Of a stretch of 11,972 nucleotides of DNA, positions 30 through 10,651 are shown one piece after another. Origin of the DNA: a virus. Its lineage: Duplodnaviria; Heunggongvirae; Uroviricota; Caudoviricetes. Both the position numbers and the translations under genes were made by a program. The stretch covers positions 1-11,972 of IMG/VR virus record IMGVR_UViG_2713896773_000004. The stretch is one strand, 5' to 3'. How positions within the stretch are numbered: the first letter of the stretch is position 1; the number at the start of each line of letters is the position of its first letter. The notes under the pieces are model-generated. The model searched no databases. It was not told the origin of the DNA and saw only the letters and a program-made list of their open reading frames with translations.

Positions 30-494
30 ATGACTCAACATATTGGCGTGAAGCTCATCAATGCTTACCCGATGACCCGTCTGGCATATAACGACTTTCG
101 TGGTTGGGAGTTACCAAGTGACGAAAACGGAAGTGATGAAGGTTATCTCGTCGAGTATCTGGATGGCGGAAAGCCAAACACCGATCGCTTCAACGGGTAT
201 GTGAGCTGGAGTCCGAAAGATGTGTTCGACAAAGCCTACCGACCAGTGGCGGGGCTTAGCTTCGGACTGGCTGTCGAAGCCCTGAAATCAGGCAAGCGTG
301 TCACCCGCGCAGGCTGGAACGGCAAGGGCCTGTGGCTTGAGCTGGTCCAGCAGTCGCCATCTGTGGACCTGCCGTACATTCGTTTAATTTATCCTGTGCC
401 GGGCAATGGTGCTATGCCATACCCAAATGGCGCTCGCGTGCCTTGGGCACCAAGCCAAACCGACGTCTTGGCTGATGACTGGCAAATTCTCTAA
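30..494 (+). CDS. Two-domain phage accessory protein; C-terminal DUF2829-like (Tad2-like) domain, N-terminal uncharacterised domain
   Basis: 154-aa ORF with ATG at 30 downstream of AAGG. C-terminal half has the motif series FGLAVEALKSGKRVTRAGWNGKG ... VPWAPSQTDVLADDWQIL, which I recognise from memory as the DUF2829 pattern (FGEAL.ALK.GK.V.R.GWNGK ... PW..SQ.D.LA.DW). N-terminal half (GYLVEYLDG ... YVSWSPKDVFDKAY) looks like a separate domain. No search was run. Confidence 0.55.
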   Translation: MTQHIGVKLINAYPMTRLAYNDFRGWELPSDENGSDEGYLVEYLDGGKPNTDRFNGYVSWSPKDVFDKAYRPVAGLSFGLAVEALKSGKRVTRAGWNGKGLWLELVQQSPSVDLPYIRLIYPVPGNGAMPYPNGARVPWAPSQTDVLADDWQIL

Positions 495-834: not shown

Positions 835-1587
835 ATGAAACTGAAACTTGATGCTAACGGAAATGTGGTCGTTGAAAACGGTATGCCTGTGTACATCCAT
901 GATGATGGCAAAGAAATCCCGTTCGACGCAGCCGCAGCGATGACCAAAATCACCTCCCTGAATGGTGAAGCTAAAACTCACCGTGAAGCGAAGGAGGCGG
1001 CGGAAGCCAGTCTCGCGAAATTCTCTGGCATCACCGATCCGACCAAGGCGCTCGAAGCCCTGGAGATGATGACCAAAATCGACCAGAAAAAACTGATCGA
1101 CGCTGGCGCTGTTGACCAGGTTAAGGCTGAGATTACCAAGGTATTCCAGCAGCAGCTGGATGAAGCGAACGGCAAGACCAAACAGCTCGAAAGCCAGCTC
1201 TACGACGAGATGATCGGCGGGCGCTTCGGTGGCTCCAAATTCATTTCAGAGAAGATGGCGATCCCGGCTGAGTTCGTGCGTTCCCACTTCGGTCAGAACT
1301 TCAAAATCGAAGACGGCAAAGTCGTGGCGTACGACGGGCAGGGCAACAAGGTGTTCTCTCGCACCAAGCCAGGCGAGTTAGCCAGCTTTGATGAGGCCCT
1401 GGAGTCTCTGGTCGAGTCGCATCCGCAGAAAGATTACATCCTCAAAGCGTCCGGTAACAGCGGCGGCGGTTCTCACCAGTCGCAGCACCAGGCCGGGCAA
1501 AAAACCATGAAACGCGATGCGTTTGATTCCCTGGATAACGCTGGCAAGCAAGCAGCGCTGAAAGACGGCGTCAGCATCGTCGATTAA
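835..1587 (+). CDS. Putative capsid scaffolding protein
   Basis: 250-aa ORF with AGGCTGGAG upstream. Charged, Ala/Lys/Glu-rich, predicted helical/coiled-coil composition, Gly/Ser/Gln-rich linker near the C-terminus. Sits immediately upstream of the major capsid gene with a 17-nt gap, the usual scaffold position. Confidence 0.55.
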   Translation: MKLKLDANGNVVVENGMPVYIHDDGKEIPFDAAAAMTKITSLNGEAKTHREAKEAAEASLAKFSGITDPTKALEALEMMTKIDQKKLIDAGAVDQVKAEITKVFQQQLDEANGKTKQLESQLYDEMIGGRFGGSKFISEKMAIPAEFVRSHFGQNFKIEDGKVVAYDGQGNKVFSRTKPGELASFDEALESLVESHPQKDYILKASGNSGGGSHQSQHQAGQKTMKRDAFDSLDNAGKQAALKDGVSIVD

Positions 1588-5189: not shown

Positions 5190-5212
5190 CCCGCCAGATG
5201 GCGGGTTTTTTA
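5190..5212 (+). terminator. Rho-independent terminator
   Basis: CCCGCC-AGAU-GGCGGG perfect 6-bp hairpin (5190-5205) followed by TTTTTTATT, immediately after the stop at 5187-5189. Confidence 0.65.
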
Positions 5213-5235: not shown

Positions 5236-6168
5236 ATGGCATTCGCAATCCCTAACGGCTCGCGTGTTAACGTGGCCAAGGCCTATCAGGCTCCCATCAC
5301 CTTTACCGCTGCCTCTAACGCTACTGAATGCGAACTGACTGTTGCATCTGCCGCTGGCATCCTGGCGGGCGACGTAGTGCAGGTGAGCTCCGGCTGGCTA
5401 AAACTCGATAATATGGTGCTGCGCGTTAAATCCGTAGCCGGTACCAAAATCGTGCTGGATTCGTTCGATACCTCTGACACCACCAAATTCCCGGCAGGCA
5501 CTGGCGCGGGCACGCTGCGTAAAATCGACACGTGGATCACGATGCCGCAGGTGATGACCCTCTCCACAGAGGGTGGTGACCAGCAGACCATCAGCGTGCA
5601 GTTCCTTGAAGACGATAAGGCCCGTACCATCCCGACCTTCAAAAACGCCGTGGTGCAGGTCTACACCTTCGCGCACGATCCGCTGCTGGCAATTTACAAG
5701 CGTCTGAGTGAACTTGACGAATCCAGCGACACCACTGCTGTGTGGTTCCATAACCCGCGCGGCAAAGCGGACCGTTATTACTCTGCCAAAGTGTCTTTCC
5801 AGAAGGTGCCTAAGACCGAAATCAACGCCGTGGAAAGCAACGAAGCGCGCATGAACTTCGAATCGGATATGCAGATTTACCCGATCGCCGATTCATCCGT
5901 TACGCCGCTGGCGTTCCTGACTGATCTGCCATCAACCAAAGCAGTTAGTGTTGGAGATGCGCTCGATTTAGCCGTCGTTATGCAAGGCGGCTCAGCCCCT
6001 TACACCTACGTGTGGAAGAAAGGAAGCTCCGCAATTCCGGGCAAAACCGCCTCGACGTTCAACATTTCGTCTGTCTCATCCGGTGATGCTGGCGTTTATA
6101 CCTGCGAAGTCACTGACGCCGCAGGCAAGACCCTAACGTCGGCGGCATGCACCGTTACTGTCAGCTAA
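5236..6168 (+). CDS. Major tail (tube) protein with C-terminal Ig-like domain
   Basis: 310-aa ORF with RBS CAGGAGAG. Sits between the tail terminator and the G/GT chaperone, as lambda V does. C-terminal roughly 80 aa (AVSVGDALDLAVVMQGGSAPYTYVWKKGSS ... SGDAGVYTCEVTDAAGKTLTSAACTVTVS) has the Y-x-C and W hallmarks of an Ig-like domain of the kind appended to many phage tail tube and capsid proteins. Confidence 0.7.
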   Translation: MAFAIPNGSRVNVAKAYQAPITFTAASNATECELTVASAAGILAGDVVQVSSGWLKLDNMVLRVKSVAGTKIVLDSFDTSDTTKFPAGTGAGTLRKIDTWITMPQVMTLSTEGGDQQTISVQFLEDDKARTIPTFKNAVVQVYTFAHDPLLAIYKRLSELDESSDTTAVWFHNPRGKADRYYSAKVSFQKVPKTEINAVESNEARMNFESDMQIYPIADSSVTPLAFLTDLPSTKAVSVGDALDLAVVMQGGSAPYTYVWKKGSSAIPGKTASTFNISSVSSGDAGVYTCEVTDAAGKTLTSAACTVTVS

Positions 6169-6175
6169 CCAATCA

Positions 6176-6200
6176 GGCCCGGTTCGCCGGGCTTTATTTC
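6176..6200 (+). terminator. Rho-independent terminator after the major tail gene
   Basis: GCCCGG-UUCG-CCGGGC hairpin (6177-6192) followed by TTTATTTC. Confidence 0.6.
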
Positions 6201-6384: not shown

Positions 6385-6915
6385 ATGAATCACCCAACCG
6401 TCTCAGTGAATGGGGTCTCCGTCCGCGTTGATGACGAAGGCCGGTACAGTCTTAACGATCTTCATGCGGCAGCGGTAGCTAACGGAGAGGCTACTGAGTC
6501 ACAAAGGCCCAGCGTCTTCCTGCGTAGCGCGCAGATCAAACGCTTCGTTAAAGCGCTAAAATCCAAAGCACTAAAAAGTGCTTCGGAACAAAATCAACCA
6601 CTTAAGGTTATAAAAGGCGGTGATCAAAGTGGTGCATGGGGCATTGAACTTCTGGCAATCCGCTATGCCGCCTGGATAAAGCCAGAGTTTGAGATTGAAG
6701 TGTACGAAGTATTTAGAACAGTGGTGCGTCTTGGTATCAGTGCCATGTCCCGCCTGAACAAAATCGACCACATCATCAACACTGAAACCAAGGCAATTAG
6801 CCAGTGTGCCAGCCAAATGGCCAAGTGGGGTGTTGGTGGTCGCAAGCAGCTATTACATGCAGCCCGGGATCGCGTCGCCGACGAAGTCCAGATGTATCTG
6901 CCCGGCATTAACTAA
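6385..6915 (+). CDS. KilA-N domain protein (moron)
   Basis: 176-aa ORF with AAAAGG upstream. N-terminus VSVNGVSVRVDDEGRYSLNDLHAAA ... SVFLRSAQIKRFVKAL ... GAWGIELLAIRYAAWIKPEFEIEVYEVF matches the KilA-N pattern I recall (V..G..IRV...GRYSLNDLH.A ... F.R ... W..P.F). C-terminal roughly 70 aa unrecognised. Lies in a 786-bp gap between the major tail gene and chaperone G, with terminators on both sides. Confidence 0.6.
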   Translation: MNHPTVSVNGVSVRVDDEGRYSLNDLHAAAVANGEATESQRPSVFLRSAQIKRFVKALKSKALKSASEQNQPLKVIKGGDQSGAWGIELLAIRYAAWIKPEFEIEVYEVFRTVVRLGISAMSRLNKIDHIINTETKAISQCASQMAKWGVGGRKQLLHAARDRVADEVQMYLPGIN

Positions 6916-6916
6916 T

Positions 6917-6941
6917 ACCCGCTACGGCGGGTTTCGTTTTT
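6917..6941 (+). terminator. Rho-independent terminator after the KilA-N gene
   Basis: ACCCGC-UACG-GCGGGU hairpin (6917-6932) followed by TTCGTTTTTCT. Stop codon at 6913-6915. Confidence 0.6.
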
Positions 6942-6954
6942 CTAAGGAACCGAA

Positions 6955-7293
6955 ATGACCAAATTCTCCCTGATCCCGAACCCGACCTTCTCCGTTACCG
7001 CCAGCATCCCGCGCGCTGGTGCTGAAGACGGCAAGCTGACCTTTACCTTCCGCCACAAGACACTGGAAGAGCTGCGCTCTATGGATGAAAAGCTGCAAAA
7101 GTCGGCTGAAGGTAAAAAGGCTGCTATCGAGCCGCAGGCCGACTACCTCATGGAAATTGTCGAGGGGTGGGCACTACCTGACGAGTTCACCCGCGACAAC
7201 GTTATTGTCCTTCTTCAGAACTACCCGCGCGCGTTCGACAGCATCGGTCTGGCCTACACCAAAGAGCTGATGGGTATCCGCGAAAAAAACTAA
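6955..7293 (+). CDS. Tail assembly chaperone (lambda gpG-like)
   Basis: 112-aa ORF with AAGGAA RBS, immediately upstream of the tape measure gene. Ends with a slippery heptamer A_AAA_AAC immediately 5' of its stop codon, and the -1 frame continues open to the tape measure start. Confidence 0.65.
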   Translation: MTKFSLIPNPTFSVTASIPRAGAEDGKLTFTFRHKTLEELRSMDEKLQKSAEGKKAAIEPQADYLMEIVEGWALPDEFTRDNVIVLLQNYPRAFDSIGLAYTKELMGIREKN

Positions 7294-7598
7294 GGCAGGT
7301 CGCCGCAGCGTTGTACACGCCGGGACCGACTCTCGCGGAGTTAGCCGCTTTTGGTTTGACGCCTGAGGACGTGGAGGAAGAGGTGGGTATCCTGCCCTCT
7401 GTGTGGAAGTCTTTCACCATCTTCTCTGCCCTGGCAACCCAGTGGCGCGTCGGCGCGAGCGGGGCGACCGGCCTTGATTACAACGTTCTCCCCTGGATGT
7501 TCGAGTTACACGGGGTTGAGGATGCGGCGGCCTGCATGGCTGACCTTCAAATTATGGAAAGCGAGGCTCTCAAGGTAATGCATAAGGAGACGAAATAA
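6955..7598 (+). CDS. Tail assembly chaperone frameshift fusion (gpGT-like), made by -1 programmed ribosomal frameshift at 7284-7290
   Basis: 0-frame codons GAA AAA AAC TAA place the heptamer A_AAA_AAC at 7284-7290. After a -1 slip, reading continues CTA AGG CAG ... (LRQVAAALYTPGPTLAEL...) to the TAA at 7596-7598. This is the same frame as track ORF 7311..7598, which has no credible independent start (TTG, no RBS). Predicted fusion is about 214 aa. Confidence 0.6.
7284..7290 (+). other. -1 programmed ribosomal frameshift slippery heptamer A_AAA_AAC
   Basis: AAAAAAC in X_XXY_YYZ register relative to the G reading frame, directly upstream of the G stop codon. Confidence 0.6.
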
Positions 7599-10500
7599 TG
7601 ACAGACCAGATCGCCTCGATTACTTTGCGGGCCGATGTTTCTGACCTGAAAACAGCCAGCAACGAACTGGATAAACTCGGCCAGGCGGCGGCCGGTGCTG
7701 TAGATAAAGCAGATGATCTGAATAGCGTGTTTCGCGCTGGCGCTGAATCTGCGAAGCAAGGCAGCGAAGGACTCAAGGAGCAGCAGAACGCGCTCAAAGG
7801 GCTGCTGGAGAATATCGACCCGGTTACCAAGGCCTTAAACCGCCTGGATGAGCAGCAAGAATCGCTGCGGAAATTCCAGGCCAAAGGTTTCCTGGATACC
7901 GATACCTTTCAGGCATACAACAAAATCCTGGATGACACCCGCCTCAAGCTGACCGACACCGGAGAAGCCGCGGCGCGCGCTCAGGCTGAATTAGCCGCTA
8001 CCCAGGCGGCAGAAAAGCAGTCCGCAGCGTTAAAGAACCTTCTTGGATCCATCGACCCGACTATCCGCGCGTTCAATTCGTTGGATGAACAGCACGCACA
8101 GCTGGTGGAACATTTCGAAGCTGGGCGCATTAACGGTGCTCAGTTCGAGCACTTCAACACAATCCTTAACCAGACGCGTGAGCGCCTCTCTGGTGTCGCT
8201 GACGTACTACCAGAGGCGCTATCCCGGCAGGAAGCTGCTGCCCGGCGCGCTGGAATCTCCGTTGGTCAGTACAGCGCAGCAATGCGCACGCTTCCGGCGC
8301 AATTCACCGATATCGCCACGCAGCTGGCTGGCGGTCAGTCGCCGTTCCTGATTCTGCTGCAACAGGGCGGGCAGATTAAAGACCAGTTCGGCTCGGTTCA
8401 GGGGGCGCTGTCCGGCGTCGGCGAATACATCCGCAGCATGGCTGGGATGATTAACCCTACCACAATCGCACTTGGTGGGCTGATTGGCACGATCGGCCTG
8501 CTGGCTGCCGCAGCGTATAACTCCTCGGAGCAATTTGAGCAGGTGGCACGCTCTGTCATCATGATGGGTGGGGCTGGCTTCTCCTCAATGCAGCAGCTCA
8601 ACCAGGCCGCTGAGGAAGTGGCTGGCAAGACGAATACATCGATTAGCTCCACCGTCGATACGCTGGTTACGTTGAACGATACTGGCAAATATACCGCAAG
8701 CCAGATGAAGCAGGTCGCAACGACCATCACCCTCATGGGTAAGGCCGGAAATGATACCAAAGCGGCAATAAGCGACTTCGGAAAGATTGTCAGCGATCCG
8801 GTTAAAGGGCTTGCCAGCCTCAATGAACAATATGGTTTCGTTGATGAAGCCATGATCAAGCACATTATCCAGCTACGTAAGCAGAAGGGTGAGCAGGCGG
8901 CTGTTACCGAAGCTATTGAGCTGTTTGCAGGCGTCATGGCAAAGCGCGCAGAGGAGACCAACAAAGCGACCGATAATATCGGTCAAACGTGGGAAAACCT
9001 TAAAAAGAGCGCTTCTGACACCTTTGGCGATATAGGTATTACCGTGCGCGCATGGGGAAACCAGATCATTGATATTTTCGAACTGGTTAAATCCTCGATC
9101 AAAGACTTGTTCCTCAATATCACCTCTCTGGACGCCAAGTTCACCAGCACCATCGCTGGCTGGGCAGACAAAATCCCGGGTGGCGGTGCGCTGGCTAATT
9201 TCCTCGGCATGGACGTTGAGGCAATGAAAAAGGCTGGAGCGGAGGCGGACAAAGAGATTGAGGCGAACAAAAAACGCTATAACGAGCTTTGGAAGCGCGT
9301 CACTGCGCCTAACGCACAGGCAAACTATGAGGCTGAAGCGCGAGGGTCTAACGTAAAAGGTGATGGAGGAACAAGTCGAGAATCAAGAGACGCAGTCTCG
9401 AAGCTTGCACAAGACTCAGACAAAAAGACCAAAGAGGCAAAAGCCACGCTGGATGCTGGCGATCGCACCCTGGAGAACTACCGCGCCCAGGCCAGAACGT
9501 TAACTGAAACGCTCGAGACCCTCCGACAAACAGGCGAAACCCACGCTAAAAACACCGAGTTCAGTAAACAGCAATCTCGATTTGCTGAATTGGATGAGGC
9601 AGCCAAAACCCGCGCGTTGACTGCTCAGGAAAAATCTTTACTGTCGAGCCGTGAGGCGATTCTGAACGCCGCCAAGGTGGTTGATCAGAAGAACAAGGAA
9701 GTAGAGGCGCAGCAGAAGATTAACGGCCTGGCGCAGCAGGCGAATAAATACGTCACGCAGATGTCGGAAAAAACCGATGCATTGCGTGATAGTGTAGGCC
9801 TCAGCAGTCGGCAAACGCAGCGCATGATGGAAGAGGCACAGCTTCGCCAGGGCTGGCTCAACGGTGGCGGTAAGCTTGATGATGCTGGCTATGAGAAAGA
9901 ACTGGCAGCCCTCAGAAATTATTACGCTGAAGAGGATAAGCTGCGCGGCGATTGGAAATCAGGTGCTATCAGCGGCTGGAATGAGTATCTGGACGCTGCC
10001 ACCAATACCTACGATGCCGTGAAGAATGTTGCCAGCTCCACGCTAACAGGCCTGAGCGACATGCTGACCGAGCTCATGACGACCGGCAAAGCATCGGTCA
10101 AAGAGTTCGGCAAATCCATGCTCAAGATGATCCTGGATGTGACGAACCGCCTCATGGTGGCCTACGCGGTGCAAGCTGCTATGGGATGGATCAGTGGGAG
10201 CGCGGGAGGTGGCGCTACACCCGGCGGTGCTTATGCCAATGCGGCCGCTGGTGTAACGTTCAATGCTAAAGGCGGCGTATACGAATCACCCGGCCTCAGT
10301 AAATATGTGAATGGCGTCTACGATTCTCCTCAATATTTCACATTCCAGGGCGCGTCGAAGTTTGCCAAAGGCGGGGTATTCGCTGAGGCAGGGGCTGAGG
10401 CGATCATGCCGCTGACGCGGGATTCTGCTGGTCGGCTTGGTGTCAGGGCGCAAGGCGGGGGCGGTGCGCAGCCTCAGGTCAATATTGATATCTACGTTGA

Positions 10501-10651
10501 TAACAAGGGCAACACATCATCAAATACGTCCGGAGACGGCAGTGCTGCGGCGCGTGCCTTAGGCAAGGAAATTGAAGCAAAGGTTACGGAGATCCTCGTG
10601 AGGGCCGCTCGGAGTGATGGTTTCCTGGGCAAAACGTTCCAACCCAAATAA
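7598..10651 (+). CDS. H: Tail tape measure protein (lambda gpH homologue)
   Basis: 1017-aa ORF whose ATG overlaps the upstream stop (TAATG), RBS AAGGAGA. Segment [53 protein letters not shown] is near-identical to the lambda gpH segment I recall ([49 protein letters not shown]). Also has hydrophobic Gly-rich segments and a Gly/Ala-rich C-terminus typical of tape measure proteins. Confidence 0.9.
   Translation: [1017 protein letters not shown]
7790..8188 (+). repeat. Intragenic tandem duplication in the tape measure N-terminal region (two diverged copies of about 54 aa, period 79 aa)
   Basis: Residues 65-118 ([54 protein letters not shown]) and 144-197 ([54 protein letters not shown]) align without gaps at about 44% identity. 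Nucleotide copies are diverged, sharing short strings such as ATCGACCC. Confidence 0.7.

Follow-up and report, generated by a model that had tools for sequence, protein, structure and literature searches.

A predicted -1 frameshift at A_AAA_AAC joining the G and T tail chaperone frames of an HK639-like siphophage or prophage

INTRODUCTION

The -1 frameshift that joins G and T of phage lambda into GT is said to have been worked out by Levin, Hendrix and Casjens in 1993 and by Xu, Hendrix and Duda in 2004. The lambda G:GT ratio is about 30:1 (PMC5009743), and a ratio that is likewise high is expected at the locus described here. The sequence AAAAAAC has been published as the slippery site for tail-chaperone frameshifting in other phages, namely in gp12/gp13 of Acinetobacter phage vB_AbaS_Loki, where it lies against the stop codon, and in gp93/gp94 of phiCbK-like phages and in HCTV-2. 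A_AAA_AAC has also been experimentally proven to give low-level -1 frameshifting in E. coli at the A6C site of IS1 insA-insB', for which no stimulator is established (Sharma et al.). Among phages with the same protein families as the present locus, two already carry a joined "frameshift product" coding sequence in the annotation of their depositors, namely Serratia phage vB_SmaS-Smarc2 (MT980831) and Klebsiella phage Shelby (MK931445).

Here, we analyzed a stretch of viral DNA of 11,972 nucleotides (the window) and conclude, from sequence and conservation, that this HK639-like siphophage or prophage very probably expresses G and T in the manner of lambda G/GT, through a -1 shift at A_AAA_AAC.

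RESULTS

Position and product of gene G

The genes that frame the element are as follows.

5236..6168, plus strand: major tail tube protein gene with a C-terminal Ig-like domain (Pfam Phage_tail_3, E = 9.6e-45, and Ig_3/Ig_2; synteny with HK639)
6955..7293, plus strand: gene G, predicted tail assembly chaperone, 112 aa and 12.7 kDa by standard decoding (open reading frame and Pfam)
7598..10651, plus strand: tape measure protein gene (Pfam TMP_2, E = 1e-52, and Tape_meas_lam_C, E = 3.9e-21)

G and the -1 frame that overlaps it are flanked by the major tail gene and the tape measure gene, which is the gene order of a G/GT-type element; a KilA-N moron sits between the major tail gene and G. The Shine-Dalgarno sequence of G, TAAGGA, is found at 6943-6948, 6 nt 5' of the ATG, and the tape measure gene has a strong Shine-Dalgarno sequence of its own (TAAGGAG, 7583-7589). 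Residues 1-112 of G matched Pfam Phage_TAC_4 (PF08748) over the full model, positions 1-124 of 124, with an E-value of 2.5e-27 and 96 bits against a gathering cut-off of 21.1. An AF2 model of G, built from a 10-sequence alignment, was of moderate confidence (mean pLDDT 69.6, pTM 0.56), and a Foldseek search of the PDB with this moderate-confidence model gave no meaningful match (best E-value 2.1). Sequence-profile searches of the PDB for relatives of solved structure returned nothing below an E-value of 0.48, and NCBIfam models gave zero matches to G and T.

Anatomy of the junction

The 3' end of G reads ATG GGT ATC CGC GAA AAA AAC TAA and includes an A7 homopolymer at 7283-7289. The features at and beyond the junction are as follows.

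7284..7290, plus strand: slippery heptamer A_AAA_AAC, in phase with G (P-site AAA at 7285-7287, A-site AAC at 7288-7290)
7291..7293, plus strand: stop codon TAA of G, directly abutting the heptamer
7290..7598, plus strand: T segment, coding in the -1 frame (102 codons, 7290-7595, and stop codon TAA, 7596-7598), DUF1799, predicted to be read only after the shift
6955..7598, plus strand: predicted GT fusion coding sequence, join(6955..7290, 7290..7598), 214 aa and 23.7 kDa
7311..7598, plus strand: open reading frame of the -1 frame counted from its first TTG, called by PGAP as a separate "DUF1799 domain-containing protein"

With a TGA upstream at 7179, the -1 frame stays open from 7182 to the TAA at 7596-7598, the last A of which doubles as the first base of the tape measure ATG at 7598 (TAATG). 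Translation of this frame after the shift reads LRQVAAALYTPGPTLAEL... An earlier note on this DNA had described a G that ends GAA AAA AAC TAA and a -1 frame open to TAATG, had given the same post-shift translation, and had estimated about 12 kDa for G and about 23 kDa for GT; all of its sequence statements hold, the translation was confirmed, and the masses came to 12.7 and 23.7 kDa when computed (214 aa for the fusion).

AAAAAAC by itself is not rare in the window, where it occurs 6 times against 2.06 expected, and 7 of 200 shuffled sequences reached 6. The significance of the heptamer comes instead from its being the only in-phase X_XXY_YYZ heptamer within the 37-codon overlap, from its TAC_4/DUF1799/tape measure setting, and from its presence in phase at 114 of the 115 related loci that we compared, which extend down to about 46% protein identity.

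The T segment matched Pfam DUF1799 (PF08809) with an E-value of 7.7e-17 and 61.7 bits (gathering cut-off 26), with T residues 21-97 covering model positions 1-80 of 80. A single PHROG profile, 17368, spans both proteins over its 213 positions, with G at 13-107 and T at 115-213, and the same pair of G and DUF1799 is found in 1163 phage records. When fused GT served as the query in a word-indexed protein search, 17 matches were obtained, none of them a genuine full-length fusion. Two candidates were rejected as GT fusions: in P0001 (214 aa), G is joined to a different tail protein segment, and in P0003 (189 aa), the -1 frame is extended upstream behind an unrelated N-terminus.

Conservation of the shift site and of the -1 frame

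The in-phase heptamer persists in distant loci from Enterobacter, Serratia, Erwinia and Leminorella at 46-50% protein identity. A stop codon (TAA, TGA or TAG) lies directly 3' of it in all unique junction haplotypes but one (L031), in which the stop comes one codon later. We compared the 23 degenerate invariant-residue codon columns of G across 97 unique haplotypes, and only the AAA and AAC of the heptamer were without synonymous variation. In L020, L023, HK578 and pAEv1818, a -1-frame TGA arising from CGT GAA reduces the overlap to exactly the heptamer. The pN/pS was 0.42 in the G frame 5' of the heptamer, and for the first 16 codons of T it was 0.46 in the -1 frame versus about 1.3 in the other two frames; over both segments, the alternative frames gave 0.8-1.6. 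The frame under purifying selection changes from that of G to -1 precisely at the heptamer. A search for related loci from a 7-sequence T alignment returned mostly the same close relatives and no new junction types. Loci considered as counter-examples and dismissed were L054, which runs into an integrase gene, with divergence setting in immediately past the A-run, L113, which carries a nonsense codon in T, and L069, which has an A8 run and a second homopolymer-length shift.

Possible starts within the T segment

The choices made by PGAP for the start of the T segment are inconsistent, given that they fall on the equivalents of either TTG 7311 or GTG 7383. TTG 7311 is preceded by just a weak AGGT, 10 nt upstream, and GTG 7383 has GGAGG (7373-7377) upstream at 5-nt spacing. 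Within the window's own clade, T codon 8 is TTG or ATG, and codon 32 is GTG with the GGAGG 5 nt upstream, which makes both positions candidates for some additional internal initiation. We surveyed starts and Shine-Dalgarno sequences in 16 representatives. In the distant relatives, the first possible -1-frame start lies 17-44 codons past the shift site at a position that is not conserved, mostly without a Shine-Dalgarno sequence, and the N-terminal T motif L..A.A.YTP.P is kept even by relatives without a start codon in that stretch. The T frame thus shows what is looked for in a G/GT arrangement, namely constraint that begins at the shift site and no conserved initiation signal, with the caveat of the clade-specific GTG 7383 and its GGAGG.

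We considered that both routes could operate, with the frameshift making GT and low-level initiation at 7383 or 7311 making a free T-domain protein with a role of its own. The plausible Shine-Dalgarno sequence and GTG in the window's clade, together with a PGAP model that picks the 7383-equivalent start in one genome, are consistent with this. We nevertheless regard it as unlikely, given that the 7383 start is not conserved outside the clade and would yield a truncated Pfam domain, and that lambda T acts only within GT (review, PMC5009743).

That the DUF1799 frame is an independent gene, started at TTG 7311 or GTG 7383 with no frameshift at all, is very improbable. It would account for the separate PGAP call from a 7311- or 7383-equivalent start, for the well-spaced GGAGG and for the TTG or ATG found at codon 8 throughout the clade. 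However, coding constraint in the -1 frame sets in at the heptamer, upstream of both starts, and a protein begun at 7383 would lack part of the Pfam domain, which begins at T residue 21. The GGAGG itself falls within the codons of a conserved acidic DVEEEV and may just reflect coding sequence, and in the distant relatives the first 17-44 codons contain no start and the position of the start is not conserved. An independent gene would also leave unexplained the synonymous invariance of the heptamer, the fused PHROG profile and the joined annotations. The open reading frame 7311..7598 is best read as part of GT and not as a gene of its own.

Transcriptional slippage

Where bacteria make productive use of transcriptional slippage, the run is generally about 9 residues or longer. 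The alternative that RNA polymerase adds an extra A in the A7 run at 7283-7289, thereby placing G and T in frame with a junction ...EKK-L..., is very unlikely: although the metagenome-derived L069 has A8 and G and T fused in frame at the DNA level, its second homopolymer-length shift downstream suggests sequencing error, a subset of the Serratia relatives reads GGA AAA AAC with six A residues only and still keeps the heptamer intact and in phase, and the more distant homologues of Pseudomonas phiAH14a and Ralstonia have G_GGA_AAC in the same phase and abutting the stop, a canonical ribosomal heptamer whose A3 is not prone to slippage.

Search for stimulators of the shift

RNAalifold applied to 14 diverse relatives found 3 pairs only and no covariation. 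In a single-sequence fold of 7284-7383, the minimum free energy had a z-score of +0.61, and 144 of 200 shuffled sequences folded at least as well. An Rfam E-value scan of 6800-7800 gave no match. No conserved upstream Shine-Dalgarno-like stimulator was seen by eye in the aligned junctions of the relatives. The 3' stem-loop or pseudoknot and/or upstream Shine-Dalgarno-like element that mark stimulated signals of the dnaX or IS3 type were accordingly not found at this site.

DISCUSSION

In the mechanism that we propose, ribosomal frameshifting at A_AAA_AAC, most ribosomes would translate 6955..7293 and terminate at the TAA at 7291 to give the 12.7-kDa chaperone G, and a minority would slip back 1 nt on the heptamer at 7284-7290 and read the -1 frame to the TAA at 7596. 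The product of the slip would be a 23.7-kDa G-T fusion, the C-terminal half of which is DUF1799. On the lambda analogy, the tape measure protein, whose gene follows directly, would be coated by G and by the G portion of GT, and recruitment of the major tail protein would fall to the T portion. We infer the ribosomal nature of the shift, its efficiency and the chaperone functions of the predicted products. In E. coli, A_AAA_AAC shifts with low efficiency (PMC5009743), which we counted against this mechanism; the same low efficiency would set a high G:GT ratio.

The slip may involve tandem Lys/Asn tRNAs, tRNA-Asn in the P site while the A site is occupied by the stop codon, or tRNA-Lys in the P site. 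The junction ...IREKN-LRQVAAALYTPGPTLAELAAFGLTPEDVEEEVGILPSVWK (EKN|LRQ) is predicted only if tRNA-Asn takes part in the slip; a slip of P-site tRNA-Lys, or transcriptional slippage, would yield ...IREKK-LRQ... instead. The TAA at 7291-7293 is a candidate stimulator in its own right, as a "shifty stop." A tentative extension, which we consider doubtful for the moment, is that in the Phage_TAC_4/DUF1799 family the sole stimulator is a stop codon abutting a deliberately weak A_AAA_AAC or G_GGA_AAC, such that the G:GT ratio would arise from kinetic competition, with release factor acting at the UAA or UGA on one side and the tRNA in the P site (Asn or Lys) re-pairing at -1 on the other. If this were true, the G:GT ratio would respond to the termination capacity of the host.

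The earlier note had proposed that a programmed -1 frameshift fuses G to T and had denied 7311..7598 the status of an independent gene. Both points are supported by the invariant synonymous sites, the switch of frame, the T residues that are conserved upstream of any start in distant relatives, PHROG 17368 and the joined annotations. Its expected junction, EKN followed by T sequence, applies if tRNA-Asn is involved and changes to EKK under a Lys slip or transcriptional slippage. The note was also correct that the heptamer differs from the G_GGA_AAG of lambda and abuts the stop, but these traits are not distinctive, given that both have been described for other phages.

The locus is an ordinary, previously unannotated case of the well-known chaperone frameshift of long-tailed phages and is not novel; the main value of the analysis is the correction of annotation. 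In HK639, the T segment is unannotated and RefSeq names the G gene "tail length tape measure protein," the same wrong name that is carried by PHROGs 569 and 680. A joined coding sequence can be flagged for the whole 1163-record family, which includes HK578-like, T1-like, Serratia, Ralstonia and Pseudomonas phages, and a domain of unknown function would gain a role once DUF1799 is recognized as the T part of GT. The locus also joins those at which no RNA structure is visible and a low-efficiency heptamer placed against a stop codon appears to suffice, consistent with the low GT:G ratio that such systems need.

When compared with known systems, the likeness to Loki and the phiCbK-like phages lies in the published slippery site, and the hosts differ. 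IS1 differs in that its product is a transposase fusion and not a structural chaperone. To our knowledge, the IS1 stop codon is also not directly adjacent to the heptamer. With lambda, the locus shares two overlapping open reading frames between the major tail and tape measure genes, the second in the -1 frame, and a slippery heptamer near the end of G, with no strong stimulatory structure evident here. The lambda heptamer, which we verified at 10109-10115, lies five codons before the lambda G stop, whereas A_AAA_AAC directly abuts the stop here, and the KilA-N moron ahead of G is a feature of this window. Comparison by hhalign with lambda G and T gave probabilities of 0.3% for G and 0.9% for T, i.e., no detectable homology, and thus our functional model is based on analogy and Pfam family membership. 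By that analogy, the element would work like lambda G/GT, and it is not a member of the gpG/gpT protein families. The lineage of the window (HK639 and E. coli prophages) has no frameshift annotation, unlike Smarc2 and Shelby, which share its families, gene order and -1 arrangement at 45% and about 32% identity over the GT query, respectively. Shelby differs at the site itself, with GCA AAA GTT TAA, in which an A_AAA tetramer and not a full heptamer lies one codon before the stop, and Smarc2 has the identical A_AAA_AAC followed by TGA.

Anatomy of the G/T junction

Across the end of the gene for the tail assembly chaperone G the sequence reads ...ATG GGT ATC CGC GAA AAA AAC TAA GGC AGG... (within 7270-7600), and the slippery heptamer A_AAA_AAC stands in phase directly before the stop codon. 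The features around this junction are listed here.

5236..6168, + strand: tail tube protein with an Ig-like C-terminus (Pfam)
6385..6915, + strand: KilA-N ORF between the tube gene and G (E 3.8e-15; PHROG 129, "transcriptional regulator")
6955..7293, + strand: G ORF, 112 aa, C-terminal ...MGIREKN*
7283-7289, + strand: A-run
7284-7290, + strand: in-phase heptamer A_AAA_AAC
7291-7293, + strand: G stop codon, adjoining the heptamer

G matches Pfam Phage_TAC_4 over its full length (E 2.5e-27). The -1 frame is open between an upstream stop at 7179 and the TAA at 7596-7598, which overlaps the ATG (7598) of a 1017-aa ORF encoding the tape measure protein (Pfam TMP_2, Tape_meas_lam_C). Translated from the C of AAC, this frame reads LRQVAAALYTPGPTLAEL..., and the segment, T, matches Pfam DUF1799 (E 7.7e-17), with the domain beginning at segment residue 21. 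The site at 7284 is the sole in-phase X_XXY_YYZ heptamer within the 37-codon overlap of G and the -1 frame. The sequence facts of an earlier note (the end of G, the heptamer, the extent of the -1 frame, the TAATG overlap and the LRQVAAALYTPGPTLAEL translation) were all correct, and its product sizes of about 12 and 23 kDa agree with the 12.7 kDa that we computed for G and 23.7 kDa for the 214-aa fusion, GT.

Among sequenced phages, Escherichia phage HK639 is the closest (89.8% identity over 6917-7650) and shares the gene order. The place of the KilA-N ORF, between the tail tube gene and G, is a variable moron slot: HK639 has another hypothetical gene there and E. coli ABWA45 a "tail tip fiber protein", and in E. 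coli ET729 the slot is empty. A terminator-like hairpin lies 3' of the KilA-N ORF (6917-6932), and just past the tube gene, near 6176-6200, a GC-rich hairpin with a T-rich tract after it was seen by eye. The head-morphogenesis part carries a Tad2-like ORF (30..494, + strand, 154 aa; Thoeris anti-defence 2-like, PF11195, E 4.6e-20), which looks like an inserted anti-defence moron given that, judged by synteny, the matching HK639 interval contains only an annotated terminator.

Conservation of the heptamer and switch of the frame under selection

The comparison set was made up of 115 related loci from genomes and viral contigs, together with HK639 and E. coli prophages. Of the 115, 114 have the heptamer in phase, and it is kept in Serratia, Erwinia, Leminorella and Enterobacter relatives at only 46-60% G identity. 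A subset of Serratia loci reads GGA AAA AAC, having lost the seventh A with A_AAA_AAC intact. A stop (TAA, TGA or TAG) directly follows the heptamer in all unique junction haplotypes except that of locus L031, where it comes one codon later. In the set of 97 unique G+T nucleotide haplotypes, an invariant, degenerate residue is encoded by 23 codon columns of G; synonymous variation occurs in 21 of them, and the two without any make up the heptamer (AAA and AAC). Bare AAAAAAC is not rare in the window (6 copies against 2.06 expected; at least 6 in 7 of 200 shuffles), and its significance here rests on phase, overlap position and conservation. The five other copies lie at 1087, 1499, 9269 and 9768 (+ strand) and 5205-5211 (- strand); by arithmetic on coordinates, none of the four on the plus strand is in slippery phase with the ORF that contains it (835..1587 or the tape-measure gene).

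The frame under selection changes at the same place. Among 16 representatives, pN/pS over the last 15 G codons was 0.42 in the G frame and 1.63 and 0.84 in the others, whereas over the first 16 codons past the heptamer it was 0.46 in the -1 frame and 1.31 and 1.30 in the others. At the heptamer, upstream of TTG 7311, protein-level purifying selection therefore moves out of the G frame and into the -1 frame. The Arg codon preceding GAA is CGT in loci L020 and L023, phage HK578 and Aeromonas phage pAEv1818, giving a -1-frame TGA that limits the frame overlap to exactly A AAA AAC; the shift site is thereby pinned to the heptamer.

Mechanism and alternative explanations

We consider a programmed -1 ribosomal frameshift yielding G and GT to be the best explanation of these sequences, and a highly probable one. 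The earlier note had read the junction in this way, and heptamer conservation, the frame switch, a fused PHROG profile and joined coding sequences in relatives bear it out. Three slip modes would each agree with the sequence: tRNA-Lys and tRNA-Asn slip in tandem; tRNA-Asn slips in the P site while the stop codon occupies the A site; or tRNA-Lys slips in the P site on A_AAA before AAC is decoded. The previously predicted junction, EKN-L, would hold for the first two, but the third would give EKK-L. No conserved RNA structure was found 3' of the heptamer, an Rfam scan gave no match, and reading through the aligned junctions of the representatives showed no conserved upstream Shine-Dalgarno-like element. 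A "shifty stop" contribution is plausible, as we infer from the abutting stop codon being the sole conserved flanking feature. The chaperone roles of the products rest on the lambda analogy and on their Pfam families: coating of the tape measure protein would fall to G and to the G portion of GT, and recruitment of the tube protein to T. Structure-based checks were uninformative.

Internal initiation at GTG 7383, which is preceded by GGAGG at a 5-nt spacing, may make a minor contribution beside the frameshift. As the sole route to T, however, independent initiation is unlikely given the frame-switch evidence: constraint on the -1 frame begins at the heptamer, upstream of TTG 7311, and the overlap is reduced to the exact heptamer in the four cases described. 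The T N-terminus, L.[AQ].A.A.[YF]TP.P..[ED]L..FG, is conserved across lineages, and in distant relatives the first ATG, GTG or TTG of the -1 frame lies 17 to 44 codons downstream, at an unconserved position and usually without a Shine-Dalgarno sequence. The proposal that the ORF 7311..7598 is not an independent gene is thus supported. Transcriptional slippage in the A-run is likewise unlikely as the source of GT, since relatives with A6 or G_GGA_AAC keep a ribosomal heptamer without a long homopolymer.

Three loci considered as counter-examples give no argument against the frameshift model. L054 has AAAAAAT TAG followed by unrelated sequence encoding an integrase N-terminus (Arm-DNA-bind_3, E 7.5e-29) and, judging from that sequence, is a prophage interrupted right after G. 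This viral contig diverges from all relatives right after the A-run (L054:2829-3564), with the integrase N-terminal part (Arm-DNA-bind_3 and a SAM-like domain) about 100 nt on; either an integrase-bearing element or an assembly join therefore adjoins the G stop, with T removed. L113 has a nonsense codon in T. In L069, an A8 run places G and T in one continuous frame, and T is broken later by a further change of homopolymer length, G5 instead of G4 (L069:2820-3070); these changes are likely sequencing errors, and the A8 run illustrates the form of a constitutive GT allele. Two database proteins also resemble a GT fusion, but P0001 is G joined to a minor-tail-protein-L-like segment and P0003 runs from a head-tail adaptor (DnaT_2) N-terminus into the -1 frame via the A-run (...ARKKLRQVAAAL...). 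Their probable origin is either a deleted prophage or a gene call in which the open -1 frame was extended upstream. In six Serratia, Enterobacter, Erwinia and Leminorella loci (L018, L019, L022, L031, L033, L035), a terminator-like GC-rich hairpin and T-run follow directly on the T stop, ahead of the tape-measure gene; the window's clade has, in place of this arrangement, a T stop overlapping the tape-measure ATG.

Annotation and comparison with known systems

T is absent from the HK639 annotation, and the RefSeq name for G is "tail length tape measure protein", a mislabel found on NC_016158 10887..11225 (L001:7039-7377) and many relatives. PHROGs 569, 680 and 17368, the families for G and T, bear the same name. 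This label is a propagating error, and the true identity is chaperone G with its T extension. PGAP annotates E. coli prophages with a free "DUF1799 domain-containing protein" whose start is the equivalent of TTG 7311 or GTG 7383. The practical value of our analysis lies in correcting these annotations and in assigning a role to DUF1799, that of the T domain in a GT fusion.

The first half of the 213-position PHROG 17368 profile is matched by G and the second by T, so fused G-T proteins exist as a family. A tblastn search with the fused GT query matched 1163 phage records, including HK578-like Dhillonvirus, T1-like Drexlerviridae (Tunavirus, Webervirus) and Serratia, Ralstonia and Pseudomonas phages; nearly all rows among the matches listed were in two pieces, which we read as two frames. 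Depositors annotated joined coding sequences in Serratia phage Smarc2 ("pre-tape measure frameshift protein") and Klebsiella phage Shelby ("tail assembly chaperone frameshift product"). The junctions of Smarc2, HK578, pAEv1818 and Shigella phage SH6 have A_AAA_AAC and a stop, as in the window, whereas those of Pseudomonas phiAH14a and a Ralstonia phage have G_GGA_AAC and TGA, the second heptamer found in this chaperone family, and that of Shelby reads GCA AAA GTT TAA. The G and T proteins of lambda have no detectable homology to those of the window. In IS1, A_AAA_AAC is a proven shift site whose stimulator is not established (PMC4066793, PMC12428005). The heptamer type and its placement against the stop, which the earlier note had singled out as distinctive, were already described in other phages. 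AAAAAAC next to the stop codon has been published for Acinetobacter phage Loki, AAAAAAC has been reported in phiCbK-like phages (PMC3556154), and A_AAA_AAC in haloarchaeal virus HCTV-2 for g-t expression (PMC5009743). The predicted frameshift pair of the window is a previously unannotated case of a known type of system.
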